NCBI GenBank assembly: GCA_003155695.1
Contig: PMDZ01000005.1
Location: forward strand, 49,913-113,912
Origin: Candidatus Nomurabacteria bacterium
Lineage (GTDB): Bacteria; Patescibacteriota; Minisyncoccia; Phycocordibacterales; UBA9973
DNA: 64,000 nucleotides
Direction of reading: 5' to 3'
Part shown: positions 2,654 through 23,666 of the stretch, in pieces
Layout of the letters: each line of letters opens with the position of its first letter
How positions within the stretch are numbered: the stretch's first letter is position 1
Program-made: the position numbers and the translations under genes
Notes under the pieces: model-generated
Database searches by the model: none
Told to the model about the DNA's origin: nothing
What the model saw: the letters and a program-made list of their open reading frames with translations, nothing else

Positions 2654-2668
2654 TTTAATAATATAGAA

Positions 2669-4660
2669 ATGATAAACGAAATACCTAAAAAAATACAAAA
2701 CCCTAAACAAAGAAGCGGTCAGAGATTCAGTTACCGCAAACACGGCAATATCCGCGTCCTGCACAAACCAGAGCAACCGATGACTAGAGTAATCAATCCT
2801 CCAAAGTTTAACTCATACAGTAGTGACAAGACCCAAACGCAAACGCCTAATAGAAAAATAAGTCGTGGAAGCTATCAGTACAATAATGCACGAGGTAGCC
2901 GACGCGGACGAGCCGGCACTGGTGGAGTGGACAACAAGCAAACTTATCCTAAAAATAATCCGAACCCGATACCGCCTCCCGAGAAAGGAGTCATCAGAAT
3001 AATTCCTCTCGGTGGCGTTGAGGAAATCGGGAAAAATATGACCGCTGTTGAAATCGGGAATGATATTATTGTCATTGATGCCGGAATGCAATTCAAAACC
3101 GAGGACACTCCGGGAATCGATTACATTATCCCAAATACTACTTATCTTGAAGAAAGAAAAGATAAAATCCGTGCCATGATCGTTACACACGGTCACTTGG
3201 ACCACATCGGAGGCATTCCTTTGGTTATGAGTCGGATTGGCAATCCTCCAATTTATTCCCGAAATCTTACGGTTTTGGTGATGAAAAAACGTCAGGAAGA
3301 ATTTCCCCATTTGCCTCCTCTTGATGCTCACATTGTCGAGACGGATTCCGTCATCAATGTCGGGGATTTACGTATTCGTTTCTTTGGAGTCACTCACACG
3401 ATGCCCGATTCCATGGGTATTGTCATCGAAACTCCATACGGTTCGATTGTGACTCCTGGAGACTATAAGCTCGACCAGGTAGATGGCAAAGTAAGCGAGG
3501 AAGAAGAGAAAGAATATGCTTTTTTTGATAAAGAAAAAGTTCTTTTGCTTATGACCGACTCGACCAATATCGAAAATGAAGGATTTTCAATACCTGAAGT
3601 TCGCGTTCATGAGGGCTTGAGGAAATTAATAGGTCAAGGAACAGGACGCATTATTATTTCGGCTTTTGCCTCATCTATTACTCGCTTGATGAAAATTGTT
3701 GAGATAGCCGAATCATTCGGCAAAAAAGTAATTCTTGACGGCAGATCGCTCAAGACCAACATGGAGATTTGTGAACAAGCCGGAATTTTCAAACCCAAGA
3801 AAGGCACAATCATTCCTGTTGAAGATGTCGATAAATATCCTCCAAATAAAATTCTTGTCATGATGACCGGAGCCCAGGGCGAAGAATTCGCCGCTCTTTC
3901 CCGTGCCGCAAACAAAACTCACAAAAAGTTTACTATCCGTCCGGGTGATACGATAATTCTTTCTTCTTCGATTGTTCCGGGGAACGAAATCGCCGTCCAG
4001 CATTTAAAAGATAATCTAACCCGTCATGGTGTTCGAATTATAAGTTACAGAACAAGCGAAGAGACAGTCCACGCTACCGGTCACGGTGACCAGGAGGATA
4101 TTAAGTGGCTCCATCGTAAAACTCATCCTAAATTCTTTATTCCAATTCACGGTTGGCATTCAATGCTCGTCAAACACAAAGAAGTGGCGATGTCTCTCGG
4201 CATGTCCGCCGATAATATTATAGTTCCGGACAATGGTTCAATTATCGAAATCGTCGATAATGGGAATAAAATCATTCTTCGTAAAGAAAAAGCTCCATCA
4301 GGTCCGATGCTTGTTGATGGATTTTCTGTTGGCGACGAGCAAGATGTTGTTATTCGAGACCGTGTGATGCTTGCCCAAGACGGAATGTTTGTCTTAATTG
4401 TAACCATAGATTCCGCAACCGGGAAATTACGCAAATCACCTGATATAATTTCTCGCGGTTTTATTTATTTGAAAGAAAATCAGGAATTGTTGCATCAAGT
4501 CCGCTTAATCATTAAGAAAACCGTTGAAGATGAAGTCCATGGAATGAACCTTGTTAATTTTGATACTCTGAAAACTTCACTCGGAGATAATATCTCAAAG
4601 TTCCTCTTCCAAAAAACAGCCAAAAGACCAATTGTTATTCCCGTATTACTAAGTATTTGA
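2669..4660 (+). CDS. rnj: Ribonuclease J (metallo-beta-lactamase/beta-CASP RNase) with a ~105-aa basic low-complexity N-terminal extension
   Basis: It has the IIPLGGVEEIGKNMTAVE start of RNase J, the HGHLDHIGG zinc motif, a beta-CASP region and an RNase J C-terminal domain. An R/G/N/P/Q-rich tail precedes the canonical start. Confidence 0.85.
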   Translation: MINEIPKKIQNPKQRSGQRFSYRKHGNIRVLHKPEQPMTRVINPPKFNSYSSDKTQTQTPNRKISRGSYQYNNARGSRRGRAGTGGVDNKQTYPKNNPNPIPPPEKGVIRIIPLGGVEEIGKNMTAVEIGNDIIVIDAGMQFKTEDTPGIDYIIPNTTYLEERKDKIRAMIVTHGHLDHIGGIPLVMSRIGNPPIYSRNLTVLVMKKRQEEFPHLPPLDAHIVETDSVINVGDLRIRFFGVTHTMPDSMGIVIETPYGSIVTPGDYKLDQVDGKVSEEEEKEYAFFDKEKVLLLMTDSTNIENEGFSIPEVRVHEGLRKLIGQGTGRIIISAFASSITRLMKIVEIAESFGKKVILDGRSLKTNMEICEQAGIFKPKKGTIIPVEDVDKYPPNKILVMMTGAQGEEFAALSRAANKTHKKFTIRPGDTIILSSSIVPGNEIAVQHLKDNLTRHGVRIISYRTSEETVHATGHGDQEDIKWLHRKTHPKFFIPIHGWHSMLVKHKEVAMSLGMSADNIIVPDNGSIIEIVDNGNKIILRKEKAPSGPMLVDGFSVGDEQDVVIRDRVMLAQDGMFVLIVTIDSATGKLRKSPDIISRGFIYLKENQELLHQVRLIIKKTVEDEVHGMNLVNFDTLKTSLGDNISKFLFQKTAKRPIVIPVLLSI

Positions 4661-4670
4661 TAAATCAAAA

Positions 4671-5867
4671 ATGAAATCGTCAAAAATAAAAAGAATGTAT
4701 ACGCTCGCTTTCATTTTTGCTTTGCATATTTCTATTTCGGCGTATATCAGTTCCGTCTTTTTGACCCAAATAATCAAGGAAAACTTTGTCGGAATTTTAT
4801 ATACGCTTGCTTCGCTCCTAACTCTTATTCTCCTTGCAAAAAGTTCAGGTATATTAAAAAATTTCGGTAATAAAAGATTGACTCTTATATTTCTGATAAT
4901 AAACATGATTTCACTGGTTGGATTAATAACTTCCAGTAATCCTTTTATAATCGGGGCTTCATTCATCTTATTTACAACGACTAATACATTAATTTATTTC
5001 TGTATAGATATATTTATCGAGCATTTTGGAAACCCGGAAACGATTGGCAAAACTCGTGGTTTATATTTAACAATATTAAACTTTGCCTGGATGCTGTCTC
5101 CTTTTATTTCAGTCCTCTTAATAACCCGCGAAGGCGGATACAGAGCGATATTTACACTCGCCTTCGTGATGGTATTTATAATGACTGTCGGACTGCTGTT
5201 TTCAGTCAGAACTTTTGAGGACAAAGTGTACAGTAAAACTCCTTTCCTCGAAACATATAAATTTTTGAAAACAAATCGGCACATACTTGCCATTATGATA
5301 ATAAATTTTATTCTGCAATTCTTTTATGCTTGGATGATTGTCTATACCCCGATATATCTTTTTAATCATTTAAACTTTACCTGGACTCAAATCGGAATAA
5401 TATTTACAATAATGCTTTTTCCATTCGTCATCCTTGGGTTACCGGTAGGAACACTTATCGATAAATATCATATCAGCAAGAGAACTTTATTGTATGTCGG
5501 ATTTTTTATCATTATCGGCTCAACGTTTACGATTTCTTTCATCACGACAAAAAGTTTGGCAGTCTGGGCAATAATTTTATTTATCAGTCGCGTGGGAGCA
5601 ACTATCATCGAAACAACTTCGGAAACTTATTTTTTCTACCATGTCAAAGAAGAAGAAGCGCATTTACTCAGTGTCTTCCGGGATATGGTCCCTGTCGCCT
5701 ATATTATTGCCCCGCTCATAGCCACAGGTGTTTTCTTTTTCCTACCGTTCAAATATTTATTCGTAATTTTAAGTGTCGTATTATTATCGGGATTTTATTA
5801 TATTCCTCACCTGAAACATAATCACCCATATCCAAATGAAAATATCATACCCAATCCGAATCAATAA
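4671..5867 (+). CDS. Polytopic membrane transporter, MFS-like
   Basis: A 398-aa protein with about 12 predicted TM helices and no soluble domain. The assignment rests only on topology and size. Confidence 0.4.
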   Translation: MKSSKIKRMYTLAFIFALHISISAYISSVFLTQIIKENFVGILYTLASLLTLILLAKSSGILKNFGNKRLTLIFLIINMISLVGLITSSNPFIIGASFILFTTTNTLIYFCIDIFIEHFGNPETIGKTRGLYLTILNFAWMLSPFISVLLITREGGYRAIFTLAFVMVFIMTVGLLFSVRTFEDKVYSKTPFLETYKFLKTNRHILAIMIINFILQFFYAWMIVYTPIYLFNHLNFTWTQIGIIFTIMLFPFVILGLPVGTLIDKYHISKRTLLYVGFFIIIGSTFTISFITTKSLAVWAIILFISRVGATIIETTSETYFFYHVKEEEAHLLSVFRDMVPVAYIIAPLIATGVFFFLPFKYLFVILSVVLLSGFYYIPHLKHNHPYPNENIIPNPNQ

Positions 5868-6558
5868 ATATTTAGCTCACAAGAACTTTTCAACGAGGGT
5901 TGGAGGAGATGACCTTGTAAAAAAGGGTCTTGTTTTTATCAACGGACGAAAGGCAATTTTGGGAGACAAAGTAAATGAGGGTGATGAAGTCACTGTCAAA
6001 TCAAAAGGTTCACAAAAAGAATATGTCTATTACGCATATAATAAAGATGTCGGGATTTCAACTAACCCGGACACTGGAAGCAAGGACATATTGCAAGTCA
6101 CAAGGTTTCCTGAAAAAGTTTTCCCTGTCGGCCGGCTCGACAAAGATTCACACGGATTGATAATTATGACAAATGACGGACGAATAACCGACAGACTTTT
6201 GTCACCACTCTACTCTCATGAGAAAGAATATGTCGTCAAAGTCGATAAACCGTTCTCCGATAAATTCATTGAGCTAATGTCCGATGGCGTTCATTTCGAC
6301 GGATTTATCAGCAAGAAATGCAAGGTTTGGCCCGAAAGCACCGGTAAGAGTAAATCCAAGGATACCTTCCACATCGTCCTGAGAGAGGGCAAAAAACGCC
6401 AAATAAGACGCATGTGCGAAGCATTACATCATAATGTTATCGACCTCAAGCGTATACGTATTATGAACGTCGTGCTGGACAAAATCCCGCTTGGAGAATT
6501 TAGAGAAATAAAAGGCGAAAAACTTAAAGAATTTCTTAAATTACTTCAACTCATATAA
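5836..6558 (+). CDS. RsuA/RluB-family pseudouridine synthase with an N-terminal S4 RNA-binding domain
   Basis: It has an S4-like N-terminus (IRINKYLAHKNFSTR) and the catalytic motif VGRLDKDSHGLIIMTNDG with the conserved Asp. Confidence 0.75.
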   Translation: MKISYPIRINKYLAHKNFSTRVGGDDLVKKGLVFINGRKAILGDKVNEGDEVTVKSKGSQKEYVYYAYNKDVGISTNPDTGSKDILQVTRFPEKVFPVGRLDKDSHGLIIMTNDGRITDRLLSPLYSHEKEYVVKVDKPFSDKFIELMSDGVHFDGFISKKCKVWPESTGKSKSKDTFHIVLREGKKRQIRRMCEALHHNVIDLKRIRIMNVVLDKIPLGEFREIKGEKLKEFLKLLQLI

Positions 6559-6590
6559 TTATAAATCCCTCCATATGGAGGGATTTATAA

Positions 6591-6791
6591 TTATTTGGCG
6601 ATATAGGGAAGTAACCCCATAAAACGTGCGCGCTTGATGGCCATGGCCAGCTTTCTTTGATTCTTGGCTGTGACATCGGTGCGATGTCGGGCCAGCATGC
6701 GAGCCGAAGGAGAGAGAAATCTTTTCAGAACTTCTATATCCTTGTAGTCAATATGTTTGATATTGTTCGATGAAAAATAATCTTGTTTCAT
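6591..6791 (-). CDS. rpsR: 30S ribosomal protein S18
   Basis: A 66-aa protein with RFLSPSARMLARHRTDVTAKNQRKLAMAIKRARFMGLLPY. It sits in the canonical rpsF-ssb-rpsR arrangement. Confidence 0.85.
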   Translation of the reverse strand: MKQDYFSSNNIKHIDYKDIEVLKRFLSPSARMLARHRTDVTAKNQRKLAMAIKRARFMGLLPYIAK

Positions 6792-6798
6792 TTTTTTT

Positions 6799-6830
6799 AA
6801 TTCGTAATTCGTAATTATTAATTCGTAATT
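6799..6830 (-). repeat. Heptamer-repeat leader element (CGAATTA)n on the coding strand, followed by A7 and the rpsR ATG
   Basis: The plus-strand sequence is aattcgtaattcgtaattattaattcgtaatt. About 30 nt are identical to the element at 14475-14492. It lies between the ssb stop (6833) and the rpsR start (6791), and no Shine-Dalgarno sequence is visible. Confidence 0.6.
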
Positions 6831-6832
6831 GA

Positions 6833-7297
6833 TTAGAACGGTATATCTTCGGCATTAATCTGTTCTTCCGGATATTCGATTGTATCCAGCTCTCCCTCAT
6901 CTTTATCTTCAGCGGGTGTAGTCTTTGATGCAGATGCCTGACTAGTTACTCCACTTTTAGCTCCGCCGCTATTGGAACCAAATTGAATTCTGTCGGCAAT
7001 AACTTCGGTTCGGTATTTTTTGGTATTTGTCGCTGCATCATCCCAACTTCTTGTCTGCATCCGACCTTCTACCATAACCTGACTTCCCTTTTTCATATAT
7101 TGAGCAGTCGTTTCGGCTTGCCTCCCGAAGACAACGACATTGTGGTAATCTGCGGCTTCTTGTTTGGCTCCATTTTTATCTTTCCAAACGCGATTTGTTG
7201 CAACAGAGAAACTACAAACTTTTATACCTGAAGGGATGGCCTTGAGTTCCGGGTCTCGGGTTAAGTTACCGATTATAAATACTTTGTTTAAATACAT
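6833..7297 (-). CDS. ssb: Single-stranded DNA-binding protein
   Basis: It has an OB-fold N-terminus (MYLNKVFIIGNLTRDPELK...), a Gly/Ser-rich linker and the acidic C-terminal DIPF tail. Confidence 0.9.
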   Translation of the reverse strand: MYLNKVFIIGNLTRDPELKAIPSGIKVCSFSVATNRVWKDKNGAKQEAADYHNVVVFGRQAETTAQYMKKGSQVMVEGRMQTRSWDDAATNTKKYRTEVIADRIQFGSNSGGAKSGVTSQASASKTTPAEDKDEGELDTIEYPEEQINAEDIPF

Positions 7298-7328
7298 AAA
7301 ATAAATAGTTAAATTATTAATAATAATA

Positions 7329-7841
7329 TTATACCACTAGGGCCTCAATTTCTTTGTCTATCGTTTCTTCATTTATTTTTTCTACTTCCTCAATCTTCGG
7401 AGTATAACGGCGCTTGTTACCATCTTGTCTTGAGTATGAACGTTTGACCGACATTGTATTCTCGCGAACTGTTTTAATCAAGAGGTATCGAACAAGTTTC
7501 TCATTCTTGTCCAGAATATTTTTTATAACTCTAGCCTGGTCGGTATTACATTCAAACTTCACCCAACCAAAATAGCCATAAGAGAACTTCTGGCTCTTAT
7601 TGTTAATAGAGCGGGACATGACGTAAGCCAGCTCTATCAGTTTAGGATATTCATCGGAAATAAAAACTGCTCCATTTTCCAAAAACATATCCTTAAATGC
7701 CGTGACTTCACCACCAAGGTTTTCCTCGGCAATTGTCGGCACCATAATGTAACCCACTTCATAAACACCAAGACGAACCTCCTTTTCTTCTGAGACATCT
7801 TCTTCAACGACACCTTCAATATTCTTTTTTGTTCTTGCCAT
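7329..7841 (-). CDS. rpsF: 30S ribosomal protein S6, with N- and C-terminal extensions
   Basis: It has an S6-like core (YEVGYIMVPTIAEEN...) and sits immediately upstream of ssb-rpsR in the conserved order. The first ~22 aa are an acidic extension, so the true start may lie further downstream. Confidence 0.7.
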   Translation of the reverse strand: MARTKKNIEGVVEEDVSEEKEVRLGVYEVGYIMVPTIAEENLGGEVTAFKDMFLENGAVFISDEYPKLIELAYVMSRSINNKSQKFSYGYFGWVKFECNTDQARVIKNILDKNEKLVRYLLIKTVRENTMSVKRSYSRQDGNKRRYTPKIEEVEKINEETIDKEIEALVV

Positions 7842-7962
7842 CGATAAATGCGCAAAACGCGCAATAAATTATTAATTTTAATACAATTTCGTTATGGACC
7901 AATGTGTACCGACTTCAGGGCCGGGACAAGCGAAATGTAGAGTCATACTAACAAAGATTCGG

Positions 7963-14493: not shown

Positions 14494-16395
14494 TTATTGT
14501 ACCACTCTTGCATTAGTTTGAATAAAGTTTGGATCATTCAATAATAAGGTAGTAATAGCCCCATAGTTATCTTTGATTACCGTATTTGTAAATGAATCCG
14601 TACCGGACAGAAAAACTTCCTTCATAAGTTGGGGAACACTATCCACCTGAGACAAAGAAGGACTAATAGAAATAATGAAGGAAATTTCACGATTTGAATT
14701 TATTCCAGTACCGGGAAGAACTGAACCCATGTTCCAAATCACTTCTCTGGTGACATCATTATAAGTTAAATTATCGTTTTGTCCCGAAGCGAGTCCTACC
14801 CATTTAATATATATCGGTAAAGCTGAACGTGCTTGCGCTTGAGTTATACTATTTGCCGAATTTGAAAGAGTCCAGGTAACTATGTATTTCGTTTCGGTTT
14901 CCGCCTTTGGAGGCATACTACCGGAAAGATAATAAGCAGATGAGGCAATTTGAAAATCAGATGATACTTTGACTATTTTTTCGGAAAAATTATTTATGTC
15001 ATCATAAGTAGAACCTAGGAGTGGTTTCCTACCTTTAATACTGACTTTAATGGAGATTTGTGGACTTTTTGCTATATATGATGAATTAATGAGAGAAAGT
15101 GGTTTCAAACTGAAAGTAACTGACCCTTTTCCGCCCGGATTTATTTCTGCCAGTTGCGGGGTTGAATTTCGGTCCCAAATAATTTGATTTTTGGCTGAAT
15201 CATAGAAACCGTTATTGGGATTGACGCTACTCTTGTCAAAGACATTTCCGGATAAACTTACAATTATTTGTCCATCAGTTATACGTGTCGGCAAATTATT
15301 CGCCCAATCTATCTCGGCATTAATAGTCTCGCCTCCTGAAACAACATATTCTGTTTTATCTTGACCATCAACCAAAATATGAGCATCAAGGAATGGTTTT
15401 GCGATAAGAATTTTCTGTAAAATGGAACTATAAACAACATTCACTGTCGATCGGTCGGTTCCGTTTGTCGTTCCCGCATAGGCATGGAATACTTGTTCGT
15501 CACCATCTTGGCCGATAAGTCTTCCCTTAATTTCAACAGTTATAGGATTGGTAAGGGAAAGAGATGAAATATCCCAAATAGAATTTCCCAAGAGTGGAGT
15601 AGGTGTAGCACTATCAAAGACAAAATTAGTGGGATATATGACTTGTAATATAGGACTTTCTCCTGTCAAAGAAGTATTGAGTGTGGCTGTGATACTAAAA
15701 GATATCGGCTGATTGGAAATGGCATCCGTAGGAGCATCTACATTAAGAGAAAGTGGCGCTAAACTTATTGTAACAGGATAATATTTGTCTTTGGAAAAAA
15801 TTGCATTTGACCCTTCCGGATGGTATTCCAAACTGATTTTTACATTTCTAACCGATTTCTCTTCTCCAAAAAGTGTAACTTTAATATTGCGGAGGACACT
15901 TTCCCCTGGCTTGATTGTTCCAATGGAATCTCGAGGTAGGCGAACAACGTCAGTCGTATTGTCATCCGCTCCTTTAGGATATTCGACAATCAAATCCGCC
16001 AATTCAAGACTTGCGGCATTGTTATTGGTAATTTCAATTTGAAGGGGTAGTTCATCTCCACCTTTGGTGAAAGAATTACCTACTACGTCTATATTTATTT
16101 TATCACTTGAAACAGAAACATCATTTTGAGAAAATTTATAATAAGCAAATCCAAGCGCTCCGACAAAAAAGATAATCGAAGCGATAAAAAACTTTTTGAA
16201 TACTGACATTGGTGGTTTTATAAATATACTATTTATACCACCTTCTTTTTTTGTTGCCTCATCACTCCATTTTCCAAGAACCTTGTGTTTTACCGGATGT
16301 AATATTCCCTCTCTCTGGTGCCCAATGGTCTTATCATTGGGGTCATAAAGGTTTCTTTTTATATCTTCGATTTTGTTTTTATTCTCTTCATGCAT
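14494..16395 (-). CDS. Large membrane-anchored surface protein with repeated beta-rich (Ig/CARDB-like) modules; function unknown
   Basis: A 633-aa protein with a ~65-aa cytoplasmic N-terminus and a single TM (FFIASIIFFVGALGFAYY). Five to six repeated segments of alternating hydrophobic/polar beta-strand pattern follow (ISFSITATLN, SVTFSLKPLS, EISFIISISPS). Confidence 0.4.
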   Translation of the reverse strand: MHEENKNKIEDIKRNLYDPNDKTIGHQREGILHPVKHKVLGKWSDEATKKEGGINSIFIKPPMSVFKKFFIASIIFFVGALGFAYYKFSQNDVSVSSDKINIDVVGNSFTKGGDELPLQIEITNNNAASLELADLIVEYPKGADDNTTDVVRLPRDSIGTIKPGESVLRNIKVTLFGEEKSVRNVKISLEYHPEGSNAIFSKDKYYPVTISLAPLSLNVDAPTDAISNQPISFSITATLNTSLTGESPILQVIYPTNFVFDSATPTPLLGNSIWDISSLSLTNPITVEIKGRLIGQDGDEQVFHAYAGTTNGTDRSTVNVVYSSILQKILIAKPFLDAHILVDGQDKTEYVVSGGETINAEIDWANNLPTRITDGQIIVSLSGNVFDKSSVNPNNGFYDSAKNQIIWDRNSTPQLAEINPGGKGSVTFSLKPLSLINSSYIAKSPQISIKVSIKGRKPLLGSTYDDINNFSEKIVKVSSDFQIASSAYYLSGSMPPKAETETKYIVTWTLSNSANSITQAQARSALPIYIKWVGLASGQNDNLTYNDVTREVIWNMGSVLPGTGINSNREISFIISISPSLSQVDSVPQLMKEVFLSGTDSFTNTVIKDNYGAITTLLLNDPNFIQTNARVVQ

Positions 16396-16421: not shown

Positions 16422-17006
16422 TTATAACTGACTCTCATTTAGAGCTTTATTTATATGAGCTATTATGGATTGCCTCTCTTTGAGTAACATTTCCGTCTTA
16501 TTGCAATCAAATGAGGAGCATAAATATTTCGACAACATATCGGAATCACCAATATATCCAAGGCTGTTCATAACCCGCAAAACCAGATGTAATTCAAGTG
16601 CTTCGCGAGTTGAAGACGACATATACTCATTATCGAGCAAATAAAGCGCTTGGATAAAGTCGTCGAAAATTGTTTCGCTCGGGCTTTCCCCGGTGCAAAG
16701 ACGCTCGAGTAATTTGCCGACTCTAGTCATTAAAATTAAAGAGGGTTCGTTATATCTCGCAAGCGGAAACGACGAAATATGCTTTGCCGAAGTCACTCGC
16801 CATAATTCTCTGCCACGAACCAAGTCGACATTTACATAGGAAAAGTCCTGTAAAGTGAAACGAAGTTTTGATTTGTGGAACCTCACTCCCTGAACGAAAG
16901 CACGAACAAGCCCCATCTCCCTCGTATAAATAGTCAACATCTTATTCGCCTCACCCATATTGCGAGATGAAAGTATAAATCCATGTGTGTGGTGTATGTG
17001 GTGCAT
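16422..17006 (-). CDS. recO: DNA repair protein RecO-like
   Basis: The N-terminal OB-fold region (GFILSSRNMGEANKMLTIYTREMGLVRAFVQGVR) resembles RecO. At 194 aa it is short, and the C-terminal zinc motif was not seen. Confidence 0.5.
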   Translation of the reverse strand: MHHIHHTHGFILSSRNMGEANKMLTIYTREMGLVRAFVQGVRFHKSKLRFTLQDFSYVNVDLVRGRELWRVTSAKHISSFPLARYNEPSLILMTRVGKLLERLCTGESPSETIFDDFIQALYLLDNEYMSSSTREALELHLVLRVMNSLGYIGDSDMLSKYLCSSFDCNKTEMLLKERQSIIAHINKALNESQL

Positions 17007-17011
17007 AATAT

Positions 17012-17626
17012 TTATTTTAACATATTATTTATAGTGTTTAACATGTCATTTGGGTCGTCAATTATTGTGATTGGGTTACCCTTTCCAAGAGTTTCTCTGT
17101 CATGGAAACCCCAAGTAACAGCTATCGATTTTACTTCACATTTTTGGGCTTCTCTTATATCTCCCAAAGTATCCGTAATGTAAACAGTATTTTCCGATGA
17201 AATTTCATATTTTTTAAGAATATTATTTATTTTTTCGACTTTGTTTGAAGTAAAATCATAACCTAAGACATCATCGAAATACGCCAAGAGATCTTCACGT
17301 TTTAATATTTTTTCAATAGATGAAGTTTGGGTCGAGGAAACTATAGCTAAAATATATTTCAAGGATAATTCTTGAACAATTTTTTTAAGAATATTTGGAA
17401 CTTTTATTTCGCGAGTATGTTTATCGTATTGACAAAAATAATCTGGATGAGATATTAATTTTCTGTTTTTGAGAGCTTCATGTAAATTCTCCTCATAGAG
17501 TGACTTAAATTCATCTAATTTTACATTTTCATTCACTTCTTTAAATACATCATAACTGGCAATCAGAGTGTCAACCAGTACCCCATCAAAATCAAATATA
17601 ACTATTTTTTTATTTTCCGGATTCAT
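17012..17626 (-). CDS. HAD-superfamily hydrolase
   Basis: It has motif I, IVIFDFDGVLVDT, with the DxD nucleophile, and a C-terminal DTLGD. Confidence 0.75.
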   Translation of the reverse strand: MNPENKKIVIFDFDGVLVDTLIASYDVFKEVNENVKLDEFKSLYEENLHEALKNRKLISHPDYFCQYDKHTREIKVPNILKKIVQELSLKYILAIVSSTQTSSIEKILKREDLLAYFDDVLGYDFTSNKVEKINNILKKYEISSENTVYITDTLGDIREAQKCEVKSIAVTWGFHDRETLGKGNPITIIDDPNDMLNTINNMLK

Positions 17627-18044
17627 TTTGCAAATATTTTTGCGCTTTTCTTAAAACATTTTTCGTTTCTTCAAAACTTAGAGTATCAAGAGCTTCTTGA
17701 AAAGTTGCCCATTTGTATTCACAAATTTCGGATTCCTGCATAACTACCTTATCTTCTTTTGTAAAAGCAATGAAAAGTTCAACTGTTTTATCGTATTTCT
17801 CTCCGCCCAACTCAAAAGTATATCTATCTATTATATTAGGCAGTCCTGTAAACTCAATATCACTAATTCCGGTTTCTTCTCTTAGTTCACGAATTGCGGA
17901 TTCGCGCGGGGTTTCTCTTTCCTGTGCGTGCCCTTTTGGGAAACTCCAATGTCCATCCGTCTGATTTAATATCAAAAATCTGTCTTCGTCACCGTCTCTA
18001 CGAAGTACAAGAATGACACCATAACTTTTTTCTTTTTTATTCAT
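17610..18044 (-). CDS. NUDIX hydrolase
   Basis: It has the Nudix box GHAQERETPRESAIRELREETG. Confidence 0.8.
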   Translation of the reverse strand: MNKKEKSYGVILVLRRDGDEDRFLILNQTDGHWSFPKGHAQERETPRESAIRELREETGISDIEFTGLPNIIDRYTFELGGEKYDKTVELFIAFTKEDKVVMQESEICEYKWATFQEALDTLSFEETKNVLRKAQKYLQNESGK

Positions 18045-21000
18045 TATTTTTTTATAACAATTTTAAATGCTAACTCATCAATCTTTATTTCAGTACCGTC
18101 GTTTTCTTTAATCACTATATCTTTAGCGCTGACAGCTTTCATTAATTCTTTATTGAATTTATTTATCAATTCTTGTCCATCAGTATTAGTACTAATAATT
18201 AAAGTCACCATATCATTTGGATTTAATCCATTCTTTTTCCTTATATCTTGTACTGCTCTTAAAAGTTCACGATACTGGCCTTCCTTTTTTAATTCTTCGG
18301 TAATATGAGTATCTAATTCAACCTTAAATTCTTCTCCTTTTTCAGTCTTGATTTTTTTTATGTTTAATTCATCTCTTATAATTTCCGCATATTCATTTCG
18401 TAATTCGTAATTCGTAATTCGTAATTCTCCAAGCGGTTGTCGAACCGGCAGTCCGGCTTTTTGCCTCTCTTGCAAACCAAGCGTAACAATTTCTCTCACT
18501 TCTTTCATTTCTTCAATTATCTTTTCTTCATTTTTCCCTTTTGATTTTGGCCAATTTTCAAAATGCACACTTTCTTTATCATTTTTATTCTTTAGTTTCT
18601 GCCAAATATCTTCGGAGGCAAAAGGGGTAAAAGGCGCCATCAATTTGGAAAGTGTTTTCAAGACAAAATATAAAGTTGTCTTGGCTTCCGCTTCGCCATC
18701 TTTGATTCTTTCGCGCGAACGGCGCAGATACCAAGTTGAAAGGTCATCGATAAATAGACGTATTGCGCGAACTGGTTCGAGGAGTTTGTAATCATCAAGT
18801 TGTTTTGTTGTATTTTCTATAAGTTCGTTCAGACGGACAATAATCCATTTGTCCAAAATATTTTCGGAACCTTTGTATTCGGAAACTTCCAATGCCGAGT
18901 CTCGGTAAAGTTCGTAAAAGGCCAGAACATTGTAAAGCAGATTGAAAACTTTATTATGCAATTCCGAAACCGTCTTTTCATCAAAGTTTTTCGATTCACC
19001 CGGTTGATTGACTCCATACATCCATAGTCGAATTGTATCAACTCCATATTTATCAATCATTGTCCAAGGGTCGACAACATTTCCTAGAGATTTGGACATT
19101 TTTTTTCCATTGGCATCGAGCAGATGGCCAAGACAAATAACATTCTTGTAAGCTTTGCCTTTGCCCATAATCACTCCGACGGCATGTAGTGTGTAGAACC
19201 AACCCCGAGTTTGGTCGATGGCTTCACATATAAAGTCTGCCGGGTAGTTTTTGTTCACAAAATCTTTATTTTCAAACGGATAATGGTCCTGTGAAAATGG
19301 CATTGTACCGGAATCAAGCCAGACATCCATGACTTCTTTTGCTCGCTCCAATTTTCCACCGCAATCACAGACAAGTTCAACCTCATCTATATATGGTTTG
19401 TGTAAATCGAGCTCGTAATCCTCATTATGAGGAAGAGGAATAAAATCAAATTCTTCTATCTCGGCGTTATCGAATTCTCTAATTGGACCTTTCTTTTCCA
19501 GGTCAGAAAAAGAAAAACCATTAGCTATAAACTGTAACCCCGCAGTTACACCACCATGACAAACAATTAAAATATTTTTATTTTTATATTCTGAATCAAT
19601 TTCATAAATGTAATCACCTAATCTCTTTACCAATTGAGTAAAACTTTCACCATTCATAACTTCATTATCTGGAATATGAATATAATCATGCTCATAATAT
19701 TGGGTAACTTCTGTTTTTGATTTTCCTTCAAAACCACTTCCTATCTCCCACTCTCGTATACGTTTATCGTAAATAATTTTTTCTTGAGGAAATTTAATTA
19801 TTTTACTGGCTATTTCAGCTGTTTGTTTAGCCCTTAAAAAGGGAGAAGAAATTATCACATCAATCTTTTCGTTAAAATTATTCATGGATTTTATCACTTC
19901 TTCTTTACCTAACTCTGTCAATATTGCATTATGTTGGGAATCCATATAAAAATTTTTTTCAACATTATTACTTGCCTGCCCATGCCTCATGACAAAATAC
20001 TTATTCCCAGATTTTTTGGTTTTTGATTTTAAATCTTCGATGCTTCCGATGACATCAACTTTTTTACACTTATCGCAAATCCAGACCGGAAGTGGTGTCC
20101 CCCAGTATCGCTCGCGGGATATTGCCCAGTCCTTTATTTCACGGAGCCATTCGCCGAAACGCCCTTCTTTAATGTATGACGGTTCCCAATTTATTCCTTC
20201 ATTTTCTTTGACCATCTTGTCCCGAAGTTCCGACATTCTGATATACCAGGAATCGCGGGCATAATAAATCAGCGCCGTTTTACATCGCCAACAGTGTGGG
20301 TATGAGTGCTCATATTTTTCTTTCTTGAAGAGAAGACCACGATGTGCCAAATCTTTAATGATATCAACAGCTACCGCTTCATCACGAACAAACCTTCCTT
20401 CAAGAAAATCTGTTCCACCTAAAAATTTTCCATCAAGCCCCACCAGGTGATGTTTCGGCAAACCTATTTCATTTCCCAAGACAAAGTCATCGATACCGTA
20501 CATCACTGCCGTGTGAACCACACCTGTTCCATCTTCGGTATTGACGAAACCGGCACTGTAAACTTTGTAAGCTTTGCTCAATTTTTGTTTTTCGATATCC
20601 GAGATTGTATTCGAAAGGTATGGGTAGAGAGGTTCATATTCAAGTCCGATTAAATCTTTACCTTTCATTTCACCCACCACTTCGTATTCCCCCTCGACAA
20701 CTTGCAACCTTTCTTTGGCCAGAATATAAAATTCATTTTCTTTTTTTATTTTTACGTAGTCGATTTTCTTCCCGATAGCCAGAGCCACATTTCCTGGTAG
20801 TGTCCACGGCGTCGTCGTCCAAGCTAAGATGTAAGTAGGCGTAACATTTTCTGATTTCTCCGTCGCGTCGGAGCCCTTTAGGGTAAAGCGCGAAGAAATC
20901 TGAAAATGTGAAGCCGTTGAAACTTTAAATTTCGCATACACCGACAAATCTTTGACATTCTCATATCCTTGAGCCAGCTCATGCGAAGAAAGCGCCGTTC

Positions 21001-21553
21001 CGCAACGTGGGCACCAAGGCACAACCTTGTAATCTTTATAAAGTAATTTCTTTTTGTCGGCTTCCTTGATAACATTCCAAACCGATTCAATATAATCATT
21101 ATGATATGTGACATACGGATTCTTTTGGTCCAGCCAGTAGCCGATTCGCTCGGTAAATTTCTCCCAAAGGTCGGTATATTCCCAAACGCTTTCTTTGCAT
21201 TCATGATTAAATTTTGCAATTCCGTATTCTTCAATCGCTTTCTTCGAAGAAAGTCCCAATTTCTTTTCCACTTGGAGTTCCACTGGCAATCCGTGGGTAT
21301 CCCAACCGCCTTTCCTTCTGACATGGAAACCTTGCATTGTTTTATAGCGAGGTATTATATCTTTGAAAGCCCGAGCTTCAAGATGGTGAATTCCAGGTTT
21401 GCCGTTGGCCGTTGGTGGTCCCTCATAGAAAACATACTCACCCTTTGGAGCATCCTTCTCCAGGCTTTTCTCGAAAGTGTTATTTTCCTTCCAAAATTGC
21501 AAAATCGCTTCTTCCCGAAGCGCCGAAACCGATTTTTTTGCCTCTTTGTCCAT
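18044..21553 (-). CDS. ileS: Isoleucyl-tRNA synthetase with an inserted histidine-phosphatase domain
   Basis: IleRS-specific GWDTHGLPVE, CP1 editing-domain TTTPWTLPGN, KMSKSLGN and the IleRS C-terminal VRQPL...ELNIK...LDTHITEEL block are all present. Residues ~516-705 form a PGAM-like histidine phosphatase (RHGQ, SPFLRAKQTA, EWEIGSGFEG, VCHGG). Confidence 0.85.
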   Translation of the reverse strand: MDKEAKKSVSALREEAILQFWKENNTFEKSLEKDAPKGEYVFYEGPPTANGKPGIHHLEARAFKDIIPRYKTMQGFHVRRKGGWDTHGLPVELQVEKKLGLSSKKAIEEYGIAKFNHECKESVWEYTDLWEKFTERIGYWLDQKNPYVTYHNDYIESVWNVIKEADKKKLLYKDYKVVPWCPRCGTALSSHELAQGYENVKDLSVYAKFKVSTASHFQISSRFTLKGSDATEKSENVTPTYILAWTTTPWTLPGNVALAIGKKIDYVKIKKENEFYILAKERLQVVEGEYEVVGEMKGKDLIGLEYEPLYPYLSNTISDIEKQKLSKAYKVYSAGFVNTEDGTGVVHTAVMYGIDDFVLGNEIGLPKHHLVGLDGKFLGGTDFLEGRFVRDEAVAVDIIKDLAHRGLLFKKEKYEHSYPHCWRCKTALIYYARDSWYIRMSELRDKMVKENEGINWEPSYIKEGRFGEWLREIKDWAISRERYWGTPLPVWICDKCKKVDVIGSIEDLKSKTKKSGNKYFVMRHGQASNNVEKNFYMDSQHNAILTELGKEEVIKSMNNFNEKIDVIISSPFLRAKQTAEIASKIIKFPQEKIIYDKRIREWEIGSGFEGKSKTEVTQYYEHDYIHIPDNEVMNGESFTQLVKRLGDYIYEIDSEYKNKNILIVCHGGVTAGLQFIANGFSFSDLEKKGPIREFDNAEIEEFDFIPLPHNEDYELDLHKPYIDEVELVCDCGGKLERAKEVMDVWLDSGTMPFSQDHYPFENKDFVNKNYPADFICEAIDQTRGWFYTLHAVGVIMGKGKAYKNVICLGHLLDANGKKMSKSLGNVVDPWTMIDKYGVDTIRLWMYGVNQPGESKNFDEKTVSELHNKVFNLLYNVLAFYELYRDSALEVSEYKGSENILDKWIIVRLNELIENTTKQLDDYKLLEPVRAIRLFIDDLSTWYLRRSRERIKDGEAEAKTTLYFVLKTLSKLMAPFTPFASEDIWQKLKNKNDKESVHFENWPKSKGKNEEKIIEEMKEVREIVTLGLQERQKAGLPVRQPLGELRITNYELRNEYAEIIRDELNIKKIKTEKGEEFKVELDTHITEELKKEGQYRELLRAVQDIRKKNGLNPNDMVTLIISTNTDGQELINKFNKELMKAVSAKDIVIKENDGTEIKIDELAFKIVIKK
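18397..18427 (-). repeat. Heptamer tandem repeat (CGAATTA)~4.4, in-frame within ileS; encodes ELRITNYELRN
   Basis: The plus-strand sequence is ttcgtaattcgtaattcgtaattcgtaattc. It is the same heptamer as in the rpsR and glyQS leaders, but here it is translated inside the variable linker between VRQPL and ELNIK. Confidence 0.7.
19439..20008 (-). other. Histidine phosphatase (phosphoglycerate-mutase-like) domain inserted within ileS
   Basis: All four conserved His-phosphatase blocks are present: FVMRHGQASNN, SPFLRAKQTAEI, REWEIGSGFEGKS and ILIVCHGGV. The domain is flanked by the IleRS zinc-knuckle halves CDKCKK and CDCGG. Confidence 0.75.
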
Positions 21554-21820
21554 ATAAGGATGATTTTAGCAGAATATTTGCATTTTTCCTAGATTCAGGT
21601 AGTATTGGATACGAATGAATTGCTCTTTACAAATCCAAGGATTGACGTCTTCGATTTGACTGACACACTTGTATATGAGCCACCAATACATCATAATACG
21701 TAGAATTTTCTGTTAAATTTCAATTCAAACAATTCGGCTCAAATACATTAAAATCGAGCAATTCATTTACTTTGGGTGGTATATATTTCTCAACAATCAA
21801 ACCGTCAGGACCCAAAGTTT

Positions 21821-21862
21821 TAGCCCTTCCCTCGCCGCCAGGCATCGAAGGGCTATTTTTTT
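21821..21862 (+). terminator. Stem-loop plus U-tract that acts as an intrinsic terminator in the plus orientation (tagcccttc-N17-gaagggcta-ttttttt); overlaps the argS stop
   Basis: A 9-bp GC-rich stem is followed by T7 on the plus strand. In the minus (argS) orientation the stem is followed by AAAACUUUGGG, which is a weak tract. Confidence 0.45.
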
Positions 21863-23666
21863 ACATTTTATCCGGAGTTTTAATGCCGAGCAACCAAAGA
21901 CCGTTTTTCATGGTTTGATAAAAGGCTTTCACAAGCTCGAGTTGATAGCTCATATATTTGTTTCCTGTCTCCAGTATTTTTGTATTCCCATAAAAAGTAT
22001 TGAAAGCACTAGCCAGCTCGGTCAGATAAGTCGCTAGATGATGCGGTTCGAGTGTTTCGTATGAATGCTCTATTACTTCCGGAAATTGGTAAATCAATTT
22101 TTCCAAGCCGATAATTTCTTCCGGAGCCTCGCCTTTCCCCTCAATTTTAAATTCTTTTGATTTTTCCAAAATTGAATTGGCTCGGACTGCCGTGTATTGC
22201 AGATATGGACCGGAATCTCCTTCGAAAGATATAGACTTCTCAAAATCATAAACTATATCACTACCGAGAGATGATTTAAGTATGGAATACTTGAGCGCCG
22301 ATACCCCGACAATTTCCGCAATTTTCTTTTTTTCACTCTCTTCCAAATCACGGTCCTTCAATTTCTCATACACCACATCCATGGAATCGCGAAGCAGCGA
22401 TTCGCCGGTCACAACATTGCCTTTTCGTGAGGACATCTTGCCGGAAGCGAATTTCATCATGCCGTGGGTTATGTGCTTCATTCTTTTCTCGTAATCGGGG
22501 TGAATAAGAGAAATCGCTTTCTGAACTACCTTCATATATTCGGCTTGCTCGGTAGCGGTAACAACAATAGACAAATCAGGATTTTCTTTTTCGAACTTCG
22601 TCATCGTCAATCCGATTTCTTTCGTCTCATACGTAGGCAAACCTTGAGAATTTATAAATACGCGGGTATGAAGTTTTTTGTCGTAATTCTCGCCGTGAAA
22701 AATGACAGCACCGTCGGATTCGTCGAAAACCTTACCAACACTATCTCTAACAACTTTCTCCCCCTTTACCGCCATATCGCTTTCAAAGAAATAGTAATCG
22801 AATTTCGTTCCCAAAATTTTATATATTTCTTCGAATGCTTCAAGTGTAACTTTCCTGCCCCAATCATAATATTTTTTTATTTTTTCATCACACTCACCAT
22901 TTTTATTAAAATAATTATATATTTGTTTATTAATACTTTCTATTTCTTTTTTAATATTTTCGTCAGTATCGTACGCCTCAGAACCAATATGATAACAATA
23001 ACCAATATATTGTGCATTTTCTGAAACAGATTCTTTTTCTAACGGTCTTTTAACTTCAATCGTTTTACTTGGATCATTATTAAAATATATATTTAGTTTT
23101 CCTAATTTATCAACATGATTAATTCCCCAGATAGCCTTGGCTACATGCGGGCCAATATCCCCTTGATAGTTGGCCCGAACGGTTTTGGCACCGGAGAATT
23201 CGACGATACGGGAAATTGATTCACCGATGGCATTCGTCATTAAATGCCCGATATGAAATGGTTTGAACGGGTTCGGGTCGGTATATTCCACCATTATTTT
23301 TTTACTTTTTAGCAATTTATTTTTCCCCCAATTTTCTTTTTGTTTTAAAATATTTTCAACACTATCTTCAAAAAATTCTCGTGACAAATAAAAGTTTATA
23401 AACCCAGGACCTGCAATTTCGACTTTCTCTATTTCTTTCAGTAAATCTTTTTCTAATTCTTTTTTTATTACCTCAGCTAACTCGTGAGTTGTTTTCCAAA
23501 TTCTTGCTTTTCCGCTTTGAGCAACGCTTCGGAAAGAAATTAAGGCAACGTTTGTTGAATAATCTCCATTTTTTAAATCTTCCGGATGTAGAACAGCAAA
23601 ATTTGAATCTTCTATATTAAGATTTTTCAAAATTTCTGTTATTTGATTTTTTATTTTCTCCTGCAT
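21861..23666 (-). CDS. argS: Arginyl-tRNA synthetase
   Basis: It has the N-terminal Arg tRNA-recognition domain (DYSTNVALISF), a class I core (HIGHLMTNAIGESISRI), the YLQYTAVRANSIL motif and the DALR anticodon-binding domain. Confidence 0.85.
   Translation of the reverse strand: MQEKIKNQITEILKNLNIEDSNFAVLHPEDLKNGDYSTNVALISFRSVAQSGKARIWKTTHELAEVIKKELEKDLLKEIEKVEIAGPGFINFYLSREFFEDSVENILKQKENWGKNKLLKSKKIMVEYTDPNPFKPFHIGHLMTNAIGESISRIVEFSGAKTVRANYQGDIGPHVAKAIWGINHVDKLGKLNIYFNNDPSKTIEVKRPLEKESVSENAQYIGYCYHIGSEAYDTDENIKKEIESINKQIYNYFNKNGECDEKIKKYYDWGRKVTLEAFEEIYKILGTKFDYYFFESDMAVKGEKVVRDSVGKVFDESDGAVIFHGENYDKKLHTRVFINSQGLPTYETKEIGLTMTKFEKENPDLSIVVTATEQAEYMKVVQKAISLIHPDYEKRMKHITHGMMKFASGKMSSRKGNVVTGESLLRDSMDVVYEKLKDRDLEESEKKKIAEIVGVSALKYSILKSSLGSDIVYDFEKSISFEGDSGPYLQYTAVRANSILEKSKEFKIEGKGEAPEEIIGLEKLIYQFPEVIEHSYETLEPHHLATYLTELASAFNTFYGNTKILETGNKYMSYQLELVKAFYQTMKNGLWLLGIKTPDKM

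Follow-up and report, generated by a model that had tools for sequence, protein, structure and literature searches.

A histidine phosphatase nested in the zinc knuckle of isoleucyl-tRNA synthetase throughout a large clade of Patescibacteria

We analysed a stretch of 64,000 nucleotides from a Candidatus Nomurabacteria genome (contig PMDZ01000005.1 of assembly GCA_003155695.1, positions 49,913 to 113,912; hereafter the window), in which ileS, the gene of isoleucyl-tRNA synthetase (IleRS), encodes a whole histidine phosphatase inside a zinc-binding loop of the synthetase. Our results indicate that this nested IleRS is the standard architecture of a large clade of the Patescibacteria, or candidate phyla radiation (CPR), and that the nested domain derives from, or is interchangeable with, a gene that, in sister lineages, immediately precedes ileS. 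The original prediction, made from the sequence of the window, had described the nested domain but missed the separate-gene form directly upstream of ileS. The sequences are public, but the nested IleRS-phosphatase is an undescribed, lineage-wide variant of IleRS: no phosphatase in IleRS or in any aminoacyl-tRNA synthetase was found in a full-text literature search, in the papers on type-2 IleRS (IleRS2) or in the domain inventory of the AARS Online paper.

The nested domain is recognised by the His_Phos_1 model (PF00300) at residues 520-687, with an E value of 6.3e-27 and 94.9 bits (99.1 bits for the excised insert; threshold 21.7). The original prediction had proposed this search, and the interval that it had delimited, 19439-20008, corresponds exactly to residues 516-705, with all four of its quoted motif blocks in place (Table 1). 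An AlphaFold2 (AF2) model of the insert alone reached a mean predicted local distance difference test score (pLDDT) of 89.5 and a predicted template modelling score (pTM) of 0.88. Foldseek matched this model, with probability 1.00 and template modelling (TM) scores of 0.70-0.76, to histidine phosphatases of about 200 residues: HFP (9mmh), Rv2419c, iPSP1, CobC and YhfR/PhoE, the first four of them at 0.72-0.76. When a profile of 30 diverse inserts was searched, PhoE (1ebb/1h2e) was the top match (1ebb, E 1.3e-29); PhoE, PSP and CobC cover positions 10-170/180 of the profile, whereas the cofactor-dependent phosphoglycerate mutases (dPGMs) of the PDB cover only about 10-120. The insert also has the GES...R block that is common to small phosphatases of the PhoE/CobC type. 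The domain is PhoE/CobC-like and not a phosphoglycerate mutase.

None of the named families examined within this superfamily claims the insert. Its best NCBIfam match, NF005567 (Rv2228c-type), has an E value of 5e-19 and 65-69 bits, below the cut-off of 326. Alpha-ribazole phosphatase CobC (TIGR03162; 61.5-65.4 bits against 162.9), PspA (35-40 against 350) and SixA (29-32 against 74.5, with a match that spans the N-terminal 70 residues only) were rejected as identities. It is very improbable that the domain is the dPGM of the organism, supplying this step of glycolysis: it does belong to the PGAM superfamily and gives weak matches to dPGM models, but the scores stay far under the cut-offs (dPGM_arch 54.7-59.9 against 225, pgm_1 27.6 against 81.7, PRK01295 27-31 against 316), the known dPGM structures align to the N-terminal half of the profile only, and the domain, of about 190 residues, lacks the C-terminal tail of a dPGM. 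Moreover, the E-R-H-Y-G block, which we take to be typical of dPGMs, is not found in the insert, whose E601 block reads EWEIGSGFEGK.

The catalytic residues of the superfamily are kept in the embedded copies (n=265), where R523, H524 and H666 are present in all, R574 in 264 and E601 in 261, with Asp in two more. This retention holds although identity to the window insert drops to about 30%, a signature of an enzyme under selection for catalysis. From these residues we infer that the nested phosphatase is apparently active through a phospho-histidine route. A catalytically silent structural or regulatory module, for example a phosphate or metabolite sensor that modulates IleRS, would fit the short and confidently modelled linkers, which suggest rigid packing, and the invariance of the N-linker in the close subfamily. 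We regard it as quite unlikely, given that near-invariant catalytic residues at such identities are the pattern of an active enzyme rather than of a pseudo-enzyme, and that the free-standing orthologues described below hold the same residues.

The host protein is a normal type-2 IleRS. As the original prediction stated, its frame is unbroken over 1169 residues. Pfam finds tRNA-synt_1 in two pieces with His_Phos_1 between them, together with Anticodon_1 and DUF5915, and the ileS model TIGR00392 (865.7 bits; cut-off 621.4) matches in two stretches that flank the insert. The features of a class I IleRS are all found, namely a HIGH-type signature (as GIHH), KMSKS (818-822) and a CP1 editing domain; for the last, 1wk8, 1wny and 1ue0 are the structural matches (E 2e-26 to 4e-21). 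The N-terminal part has the motifs WTTTPWT (245-251) and GTGVVH (342-347), and the second Rossmann half also carries DVWLDSG (743-749). The best PDB matches are IleRS2 structures (8c8w, E 6.7e-244; 1ile, E 3.3e-228), and the type-1 structures 8c9f and 1ffy match far more weakly (1ffy, E 1.8e-88). With 8c8w/8c8v of Priestia megaterium and 1ile of Thermus thermophilus, the window protein shares host domains that align end to end, a CxxC...CxC knuckle in the corresponding position and the type-2 C-terminal domain PF19302/DUF5915, found here at residues 1050-1169. Activation of isoleucine and charging of tRNA(Ile) are the functions predicted for this part of the protein.

The insertion point is well defined. 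Residues 10-509 align with residues 10-475 of 8c8w, and residues 709-1080 with 480-859; therefore about 191-199 residues stand in the place of four (476-479 of 8c8w). Within the host, the boundaries of the phosphatase lie between K514/S515 and P706, at the tip of the second zinc knuckle, the last one of the connective polypeptide. CDKC (493-496) and CDCGG (729-733) flank the domain, as the original prediction had proposed, and the alignment to the structural template 8c8w agrees. In an alignment of 63 sequences (A1), H718, P720 and D723 are invariant and C729 and C731 nearly so; in an alignment of the close subfamily (A3), K4, K5, S6, G7, N8 and K9 of the N-linker KKSGNK are invariant. Among the related proteins sampled, the spacing between CxxC and H[KR]P is cleanly bimodal, with 19-31 residues where the insert is lacking, 200-230 where it is present and no values between. 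A model of the full-length protein gives confident values for the insert and for either linker (pLDDT 89-96 for residues 491-600 and 90-91 for 691-710).

Two details of the original prediction need revision. It had called the knuckle 'Thermus/Staphylococcus-type', of which the Thermus, or type-2, part stands and the Staphylococcus part does not, 1ffy being the type-1 enzyme of S. aureus. It had also placed the phosphatase in an 'active-site lobe'. The Rossmann (HUP) core of P. megaterium IleRS2 consists of residues 40-168 and 513-632 (PMC10485003); since the core resumes at 513, some 35 residues beyond the insertion point at 476-479, the phosphatase is placed in the connective-polypeptide region and outside the core. 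The connective peptides of IleRS have been named CP core, CP1/editing, CP2 and CP3 (PMC11685878), and we infer that the knuckle bearing the insert is CP3.

The nested architecture is lineage-wide. In the best 80 of 501 tblastn-confirmed candidate stretches from GTDB species representatives, to which all counts of nested loci refer, the order IleRS N-terminal part, histidine phosphatase, IleRS C-terminal part was present in 80 of 80, in a single open reading frame (ORF) in 77 and in split ORFs in three. All of the best 120 full-length homologues (65-80% identical, 1138-1327 residues, on contigs of up to 598 kb) contain PF00300, and 74 of 141 newly returned 50%-identity cluster representatives nearest to the insert have IleRS flanks. 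The titles of the records with a nested IleRS are Paceibacterota, Nomurabacteria, Minisyncoccia, Zambryskibacteria, Campbellbacteria and Parcubacteria, with more divergent fragments in Niyogibacteria, Uhrbacteria and Nealsonbacteria. The layout is already seen in records of 2015 (Nomurabacteria GW2011). The search of relatives for lineage-specificity, suggested by the original prediction, thus gave a clear answer, at the expense of its statement that this is 'not a standard architecture': it is the normal layout of IleRS in a large clade of the Patescibacteria, present in public databases since 2015. Three nested records bear titles from outside the CPR, Nitrospira sp. (L043), Nanoarchaeota (P0020) and Sedimentisphaerales (P0041), and the first of them has the CPR-type synteny of recO and X633, a gene for a protein of 633 residues. 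These are probably due to contamination in binning.

The same counts bear on whether an assembly chimera or a frameshift has united an independent phosphatase gene with two ileS fragments. In favour of such an event, the insert has a GC content of 30%, whereas the N-terminal part of IleRS has 43% and the C-terminal part 36%; at third codon positions (GC3), the values are 0.21, 0.42 and 0.32. The split ORFs in three of the 80 related loci point the same way. However, the identical 1169-residue protein is found on five contigs, the continuous layout recurs at the same site in 77 of 80 species-level genomes and in 120 of 120 protein clusters, and low-GC patches are common in the less conserved segments of the window. 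The probability left for a chimera or frameshift is close to nil, and this explanation is effectively refuted, in line with the argument of the original prediction against a fusion artefact. A foreign origin, suggested by the GC dip at 19430-20026, is not compelling either, because similar AT-rich patches occur in a HAD gene, within argS and at the C-terminus of IleRS. Those comparable to the insert lie at 22800-23100 (inside argS) and 17100-17700 (HAD gene). Rather than foreign DNA, the strong variation of GC within genes suggests a relaxed drift towards AT where conservation is low.

The origin of the domain is indicated by its free-standing relatives. The nearest of these are proteins of 186-200 residues, 36-41% identical to the insert (E ~1e-23), which were intermixed with embedded copies in the search and are annotated as PhoE or 'histidine phosphatase family protein' in Patescibacteria and Staskawiczbacteria. 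Three of them (P0258, P0281 and P0278) are each encoded directly upstream of an insert-less ileS, in the same argS-...-ileS-recO-X block. A metagenome scan seeded with three free-standing proteins returned 80 loci, in 70 of which ileS lies downstream of the free phosphatase on the same strand. The gap between the two genes is at most 121 nucleotides in 61 of the 70 (median about 4, with several overlaps), and in the other nine an extra 1-2.8 kb separates them. As for the ten loci without ileS, nine have no more than 1.7 kb of downstream sequence. An insert-less IleRS of this kind (L087) retains the zinc knuckle with a short loop, ...CENCKEIKVIESRKELGVDDKFDLHKPFIDEIKFKCKCGG.

The nested segment corresponds to the entire free ORF, from N-K-Y-F to the GE-x-R/K-x-L strand, and embedded copies show the same profile of conservation as free ones. 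Synteny extends over the dUTPase-argS-ileS-recO-X633 block as a whole, in both types of locus. The two states are mutually exclusive: no separate histidine phosphatase ORF was found in the 80 nested loci, and no nested copy in the 80 free-phosphatase loci, including the 70 with ileS. In the window itself, no second histidine phosphatase gene was found in the 64 kb, the 307-nucleotide argS-ileS spacer (21554-21860) holds no remnant of one at the thresholds used, and no RNA element in or near this spacer matched Rfam at E ≤0.1. One locus of a Paceibacterota contig (L084) is peculiar, in that the phosphatase persists there although ileS is absent from its usual place. A defence-type island (1641-7946) with AbiEii, NERD, MazG-like, SLFN-like helicase and DUF3800 genes lies between argS and the phosphatase in this locus.

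The passage from one state to the other seems to have taken place more than once. When the insert is left out, neighbour-joining (NJ) trees of the host IleRS show nested and separate states interleaved, and Fitch parsimony requires four to six state changes in 100 of 100 bootstrap trees. These trees do not support a single capture event, with the proviso that basal branches are very short. Several interconversions or transfers between states are likely, on distance trees only.

The loop that received the phosphatase has also accepted other cargo. In eight relatives (P0250, P0282, P0290, P0309, P0320, P0378, P0379 and P0334), it holds two or four histidine phosphatases in tandem, or a GNAT domain together with a histidine phosphatase. 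The tandem copies within one protein are only 25-36% identical, and all complete tandem copies counted keep the catalytic histidines. Between two copies there may be a segment of about 145 residues (739-884 of P0250; 708-850 of P0320) without a Pfam match at E ≤1e-5, and in P0334 residues 340-461, which fall within CP1, match an IS200-like Y1 transposase domain. A comparable process is seen in a sub-lineage at the other end of the gene. An HD/HDIG protein of 213 residues is encoded directly 3' of ileS in L003 (4263-4898) and L009 (8011-8649), and shares 51-65% identity with the last 210 residues of IleRS proteins of 1328-1386 residues (L008, L015, L018, L060, L063, L065 and L072); therefore a downstream neighbour has been fused to IleRS too. 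This HD partner had no informative match in NCBIfam or PDB.

What the phosphatase does can be read in several ways, and we lean slightly towards an autonomous module for which IleRS is a mere carrier or partner outside its chemistry. The protein would then be bifunctional, a normal type-2 IleRS with a whole PhoE/CobC-like phosphatase of about 190 residues at the tip of the knuckle, and the phosphatase would form a second, autonomous active site with the canonical mechanism of the superfamily. H524 would attack a phosphomonoester to give a phospho-histidine intermediate, with R523, R574 and H666 holding the phosphate and E601, the presumed general acid, acting in acid/base catalysis. The substrate may be a small phosphomonoester, as free relatives presumably use. 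A neighbouring gene of an argS-hisPhos-ileS-recO operon would have moved inside ileS in the clade of the window, and nesting would give obligatory 1:1 co-expression and co-localisation with IleRS. The conservation of the pocket shared with free copies, the divergent tandem copies, the acidic surface, the HD fusion and the single case of L084 all fit autonomy, and the unrelated recO and dUTPase genes of the block are just as syntenic as the phosphatase. The insert of the window has an isoelectric point (pI) of 5.6 and a net charge of -5, and the median pI of the family is 6.35. This mild acidity, together with a conservation profile equal to that of the free relatives, gives no positive support for an IleRS-specific substrate; the original prediction had proposed a nucleotide or aminoacyl-adenylate-related compound, a phosphoprotein or the 3' ends of tRNA as candidates.

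Several observations could just as well speak for a true partnership in the mechanism. In the separate-gene state, phosphatase and ileS abut start to stop; nested and separate states are strictly complementary; through the four to six inferred switches, the association of IleRS and phosphatase was kept each time; the linkers of the nested form are short and modelled with confidence (pLDDT 89-91); and a second phosphohydrolase, the HD protein, shows the same neighbour-or-fusion behaviour. These findings raise the possibility of a mechanistic coupling to aminoacylation, through healing of the 3' end of tRNA(Ile) or through removal of a nucleotide that is made at, or inhibits, the IleRS site, with the HD domain perhaps joining in some sub-lineages. 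In the tRNA variant, the phosphatase could remove a 2'- or 3'-phosphate after the opening of a 2',3'-cyclic phosphate. Under coupling of either kind, IleRS and phosphatase would together make up a machine for charging plus healing, or for housecleaning. A precedent is the E. coli CCA-adding enzyme, whose HD domain has 2',3'-cyclic phosphodiesterase and phosphatase activities on tRNA ends. Linkage in two topologies, with a median gap of about 4 nucleotides and some overlapping ORFs in the separate form, argues for coupling, as does the slot beside ileS, often occupied by a Nudix, HAD, MBL-fold or AAA_33 kinase-like protein.

We nevertheless hold coupling to be doubtful, though far from negligible. 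The insert is mildly acidic, no residue of the pocket is conserved specifically in embedded copies, divergent tandem copies suit a geometry-dependent role poorly, the unrelated neighbours recO and dUTPase show equal synteny, and Nudix and HAD genes recur beside ileS in only 2-4 of 80 loci. To our knowledge, no histidine phosphatase acts on the 3' end of RNA. With the same reserve, it may be tentatively suggested that, in CPR bacteria of the Parcubacteria type, IleRS has an obligate functional partner in the histidine phosphatase, either nested in the CP3 knuckle or bound non-covalently as the product of a translationally coupled gene upstream, and that the fused HD phosphohydrolase joins them in some lineages. 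The reaction of the phosphatase would be needed for the charging of tRNA(Ile) or would proofread it.

A further proposal takes its cue from the GNAT domains. Histidine phosphatase, GNAT and HD domains might be resistance or detoxification modules, modifying natural inhibitors of IleRS, such as aminoacyl-adenylate mimics or phosphorylated pro-toxins, at the place where they bind. The GNATs MccE and RimL acetylate aminoacyl-nucleotide antibiotics and so detoxify them. In keeping with this, a GNAT domain sits in the same loop of some relatives, NCBIfam has a model 'ileS_w_GNAT', and the host has a GXHH signature; the motif G/AXHH has been linked to mupirocin hyper-resistance of IleRS2 (PMC10485003). 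But GXHH is widespread in IleRS2 regardless of inserts, no phosphomonoester is among the known IleRS inhibitors, the conservation profile is that of free copies annotated as PhoE-like, and the case is wholly circumstantial, which makes this proposal unlikely. At the GIHH signature, A1 has the consensus PGIHH, and the models of the resistant synthetases MupA and MupB (NF000257/8; 784/778 bits against 1900) and of ileS_w_GNAT (NF040702; 314 against 1999) were not reached by the window protein, in which Pfam finds no GNAT domain.

Compared with known systems, the window protein shares the GXHH signature with a subset of IleRS2 and differs from 8c8w in the insert. PhoE/YhfR, CobC, iPSP1, Rv2419c and HFP have its fold, a length of about 200 residues and the R-H...R...E...H and GES...R patterns, but are not nested in another enzyme, and none of the equivalog cut-offs in this group is reached by the insert. 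The free phosphatases of Patescibacteria (P0258, P0281, P0278 and P0267, Staskawiczbacteria and others) agree with it over the whole domain, in profile and in genomic block; unlike the window copy, they are separate ORFs abutting the start of an insert-less ileS. Proteins of the NF040702 type are IleRS with an added enzymatic domain as well, in their case the GNAT that the window protein lacks and that some relatives carry beside the phosphatase. The RNase H/acid phosphatase of the Rv2228c type (NF005567) likewise joins a CobC/PhoE-like phosphatase to a nucleic-acid enzyme, but end to end and with another partner. Within synthetases, an analogy is offered by the CP1 editing domain of class Ia enzymes, which is also hydrolytic and also sits in the connective polypeptide of a Rossmann fold. 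CP1, with mischarged tRNA or adenylate as its substrates, is shared by all IleRS, ValRS and LeuRS, whereas the insert described here is lineage-specific, belongs to another connective-polypeptide element and has an unrelated fold.

Other features of the window deserve mention. The synthetase part has two four-Cys clusters, and the second alone is aligned to a known knuckle. Residues 214-236 (20846-20914, minus strand), 23 residues reading ASHFQISSRFTLKGSDATEKSEN, have no counterpart in P. megaterium IleRS2 and are modelled with pLDDT <50; they make up a small insertion, specific to the lineage, where the CP1 region begins. Downstream of ileS, the start codon of a Nudix hydrolase gene (17610-18044, minus strand) overlaps the ileS stop, and a HAD phosphatase gene (17012-17626, minus strand) overlaps the Nudix gene in turn, so that the pair looks operonic with ileS. 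Nudix and HAD genes were rejected as a conserved functional link, as only 2-4 of 80 related loci have them in the slot from ileS to recO. That slot is variable (L001-L166), with HAD, Nudix, MBL-fold hydrolase, Ser hydrolase, AAA_33/Zeta-toxin-like kinase, PaaX-like and several unknown ORFs of 270-420 residues. The 633-residue protein (14494-16395, minus strand) has no Pfam match and is kept 3' of recO in nearly all nested and separate loci; for one homologue, a 'faint' CLIPPER hit has been recorded.

Table 1. Coordinates in the window of ileS, its nested phosphatase and the flanking synteny anchors
Feature	Position	Strand	Basis
ileS ORF, 1169 residues, type-2 IleRS with nested His_Phos_1	18044..21553	-	ORF scan, Pfam, NCBIfam, PDB alignment
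IleRS N-terminal part, residues 1-515: first Rossmann half, CP1 editing, CP2, first zinc-knuckle half	20009..21553	-	residues 10-509 align with 8c8w 10-475
Class I signature, non-canonical G-I-H-H, residues 54-57	21383..21394	-	sequence
Zinc knuckle, first Cys pair CDKC (C493, C496)	20066..20077	-	near-invariant in A1
Host loop and N-linker KSKTKKS, residues 509-515, Lys-rich	20009..20029	-	invariant in close subfamily, A3
Nested histidine phosphatase, residues 516-705 (GNKYF...EFDFI), PhoE/CobC-like, equal to whole ORF of free homologue	19439..20008	-	PF00300, AF2, Foldseek, profile search
RHG motif, residues 523-525; R523 phosphate-binding, H524 nucleophile (predicted roles)	19979..19987	-	R and H each 265/265
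SPFLRAKQTA block, residues 570-579, with S570, R574, T578	19817..19846	-	R574 264/265, S570 265/265
EWEIGSGFEG block, residues 601-610; E601 presumed general acid	19724..19753	-	E 261/265 and D 2
CHGG block, residues 665-668; H666 putative second catalytic His	19550..19561	-	H 265/265
Host loop resuming (PLPH...LHKPYID), then second Cys pair CDCGG (729-733; C729, C731)	19355..19438	-	residues 709 on align with 8c8w 480 on
IleRS C-terminal part: second Rossmann half, anticodon-binding domain, type-2 C-terminal domain	18047..19354	-	Pfam; alignment to 8c8w 480-1018
argS, upstream synteny anchor; free His_Phos gene lies between argS and ileS in sister lineages	21861..23666	-	Pfam; synteny
recO, downstream synteny anchor	16422..17006	-	Pfam RecO_N; synteny

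The nested architecture has consequences for the annotation of CPR genomes. Under the names given by the Prokaryotic Genome Annotation Pipeline (PGAP), full-length nested proteins are mostly 'class I tRNA ligase family protein', and 'histidine phosphatase family protein, partial' is the name of some fragments; therefore IleRS may seem to be missing, and a PGAM-family gene may seem to be present, in automated reconstructions of CPR metabolism. Pathway pipelines could thus count the domain as a phosphoglycerate mutase in CPR glycolysis. For the synthetases, which are among the best catalogued proteins, a phosphatase is a new type of domain as far as the searched literature shows. In at least 80 of the species-level genomes examined, an apparently active one occupies the insertions in the catalytic domain of this essential enzyme. 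A loop with one to four phosphatases or a GNAT domain, together with the capture of an HD protein, portrays an essential enzyme that accretes neighbouring genes in reduced genomes. A phosphatase that is nested in IleRS or abuts it, but never both, makes a natural Rosetta-stone pair, which predicts a physical or functional partnership. Should the phosphatase be an obligate partner of IleRS, it would add a new catalytic activity to those associated with the synthetases, for example the removal of terminal phosphates from damaged 3' ends of tRNA or the hydrolysis of inhibitory nucleotides.

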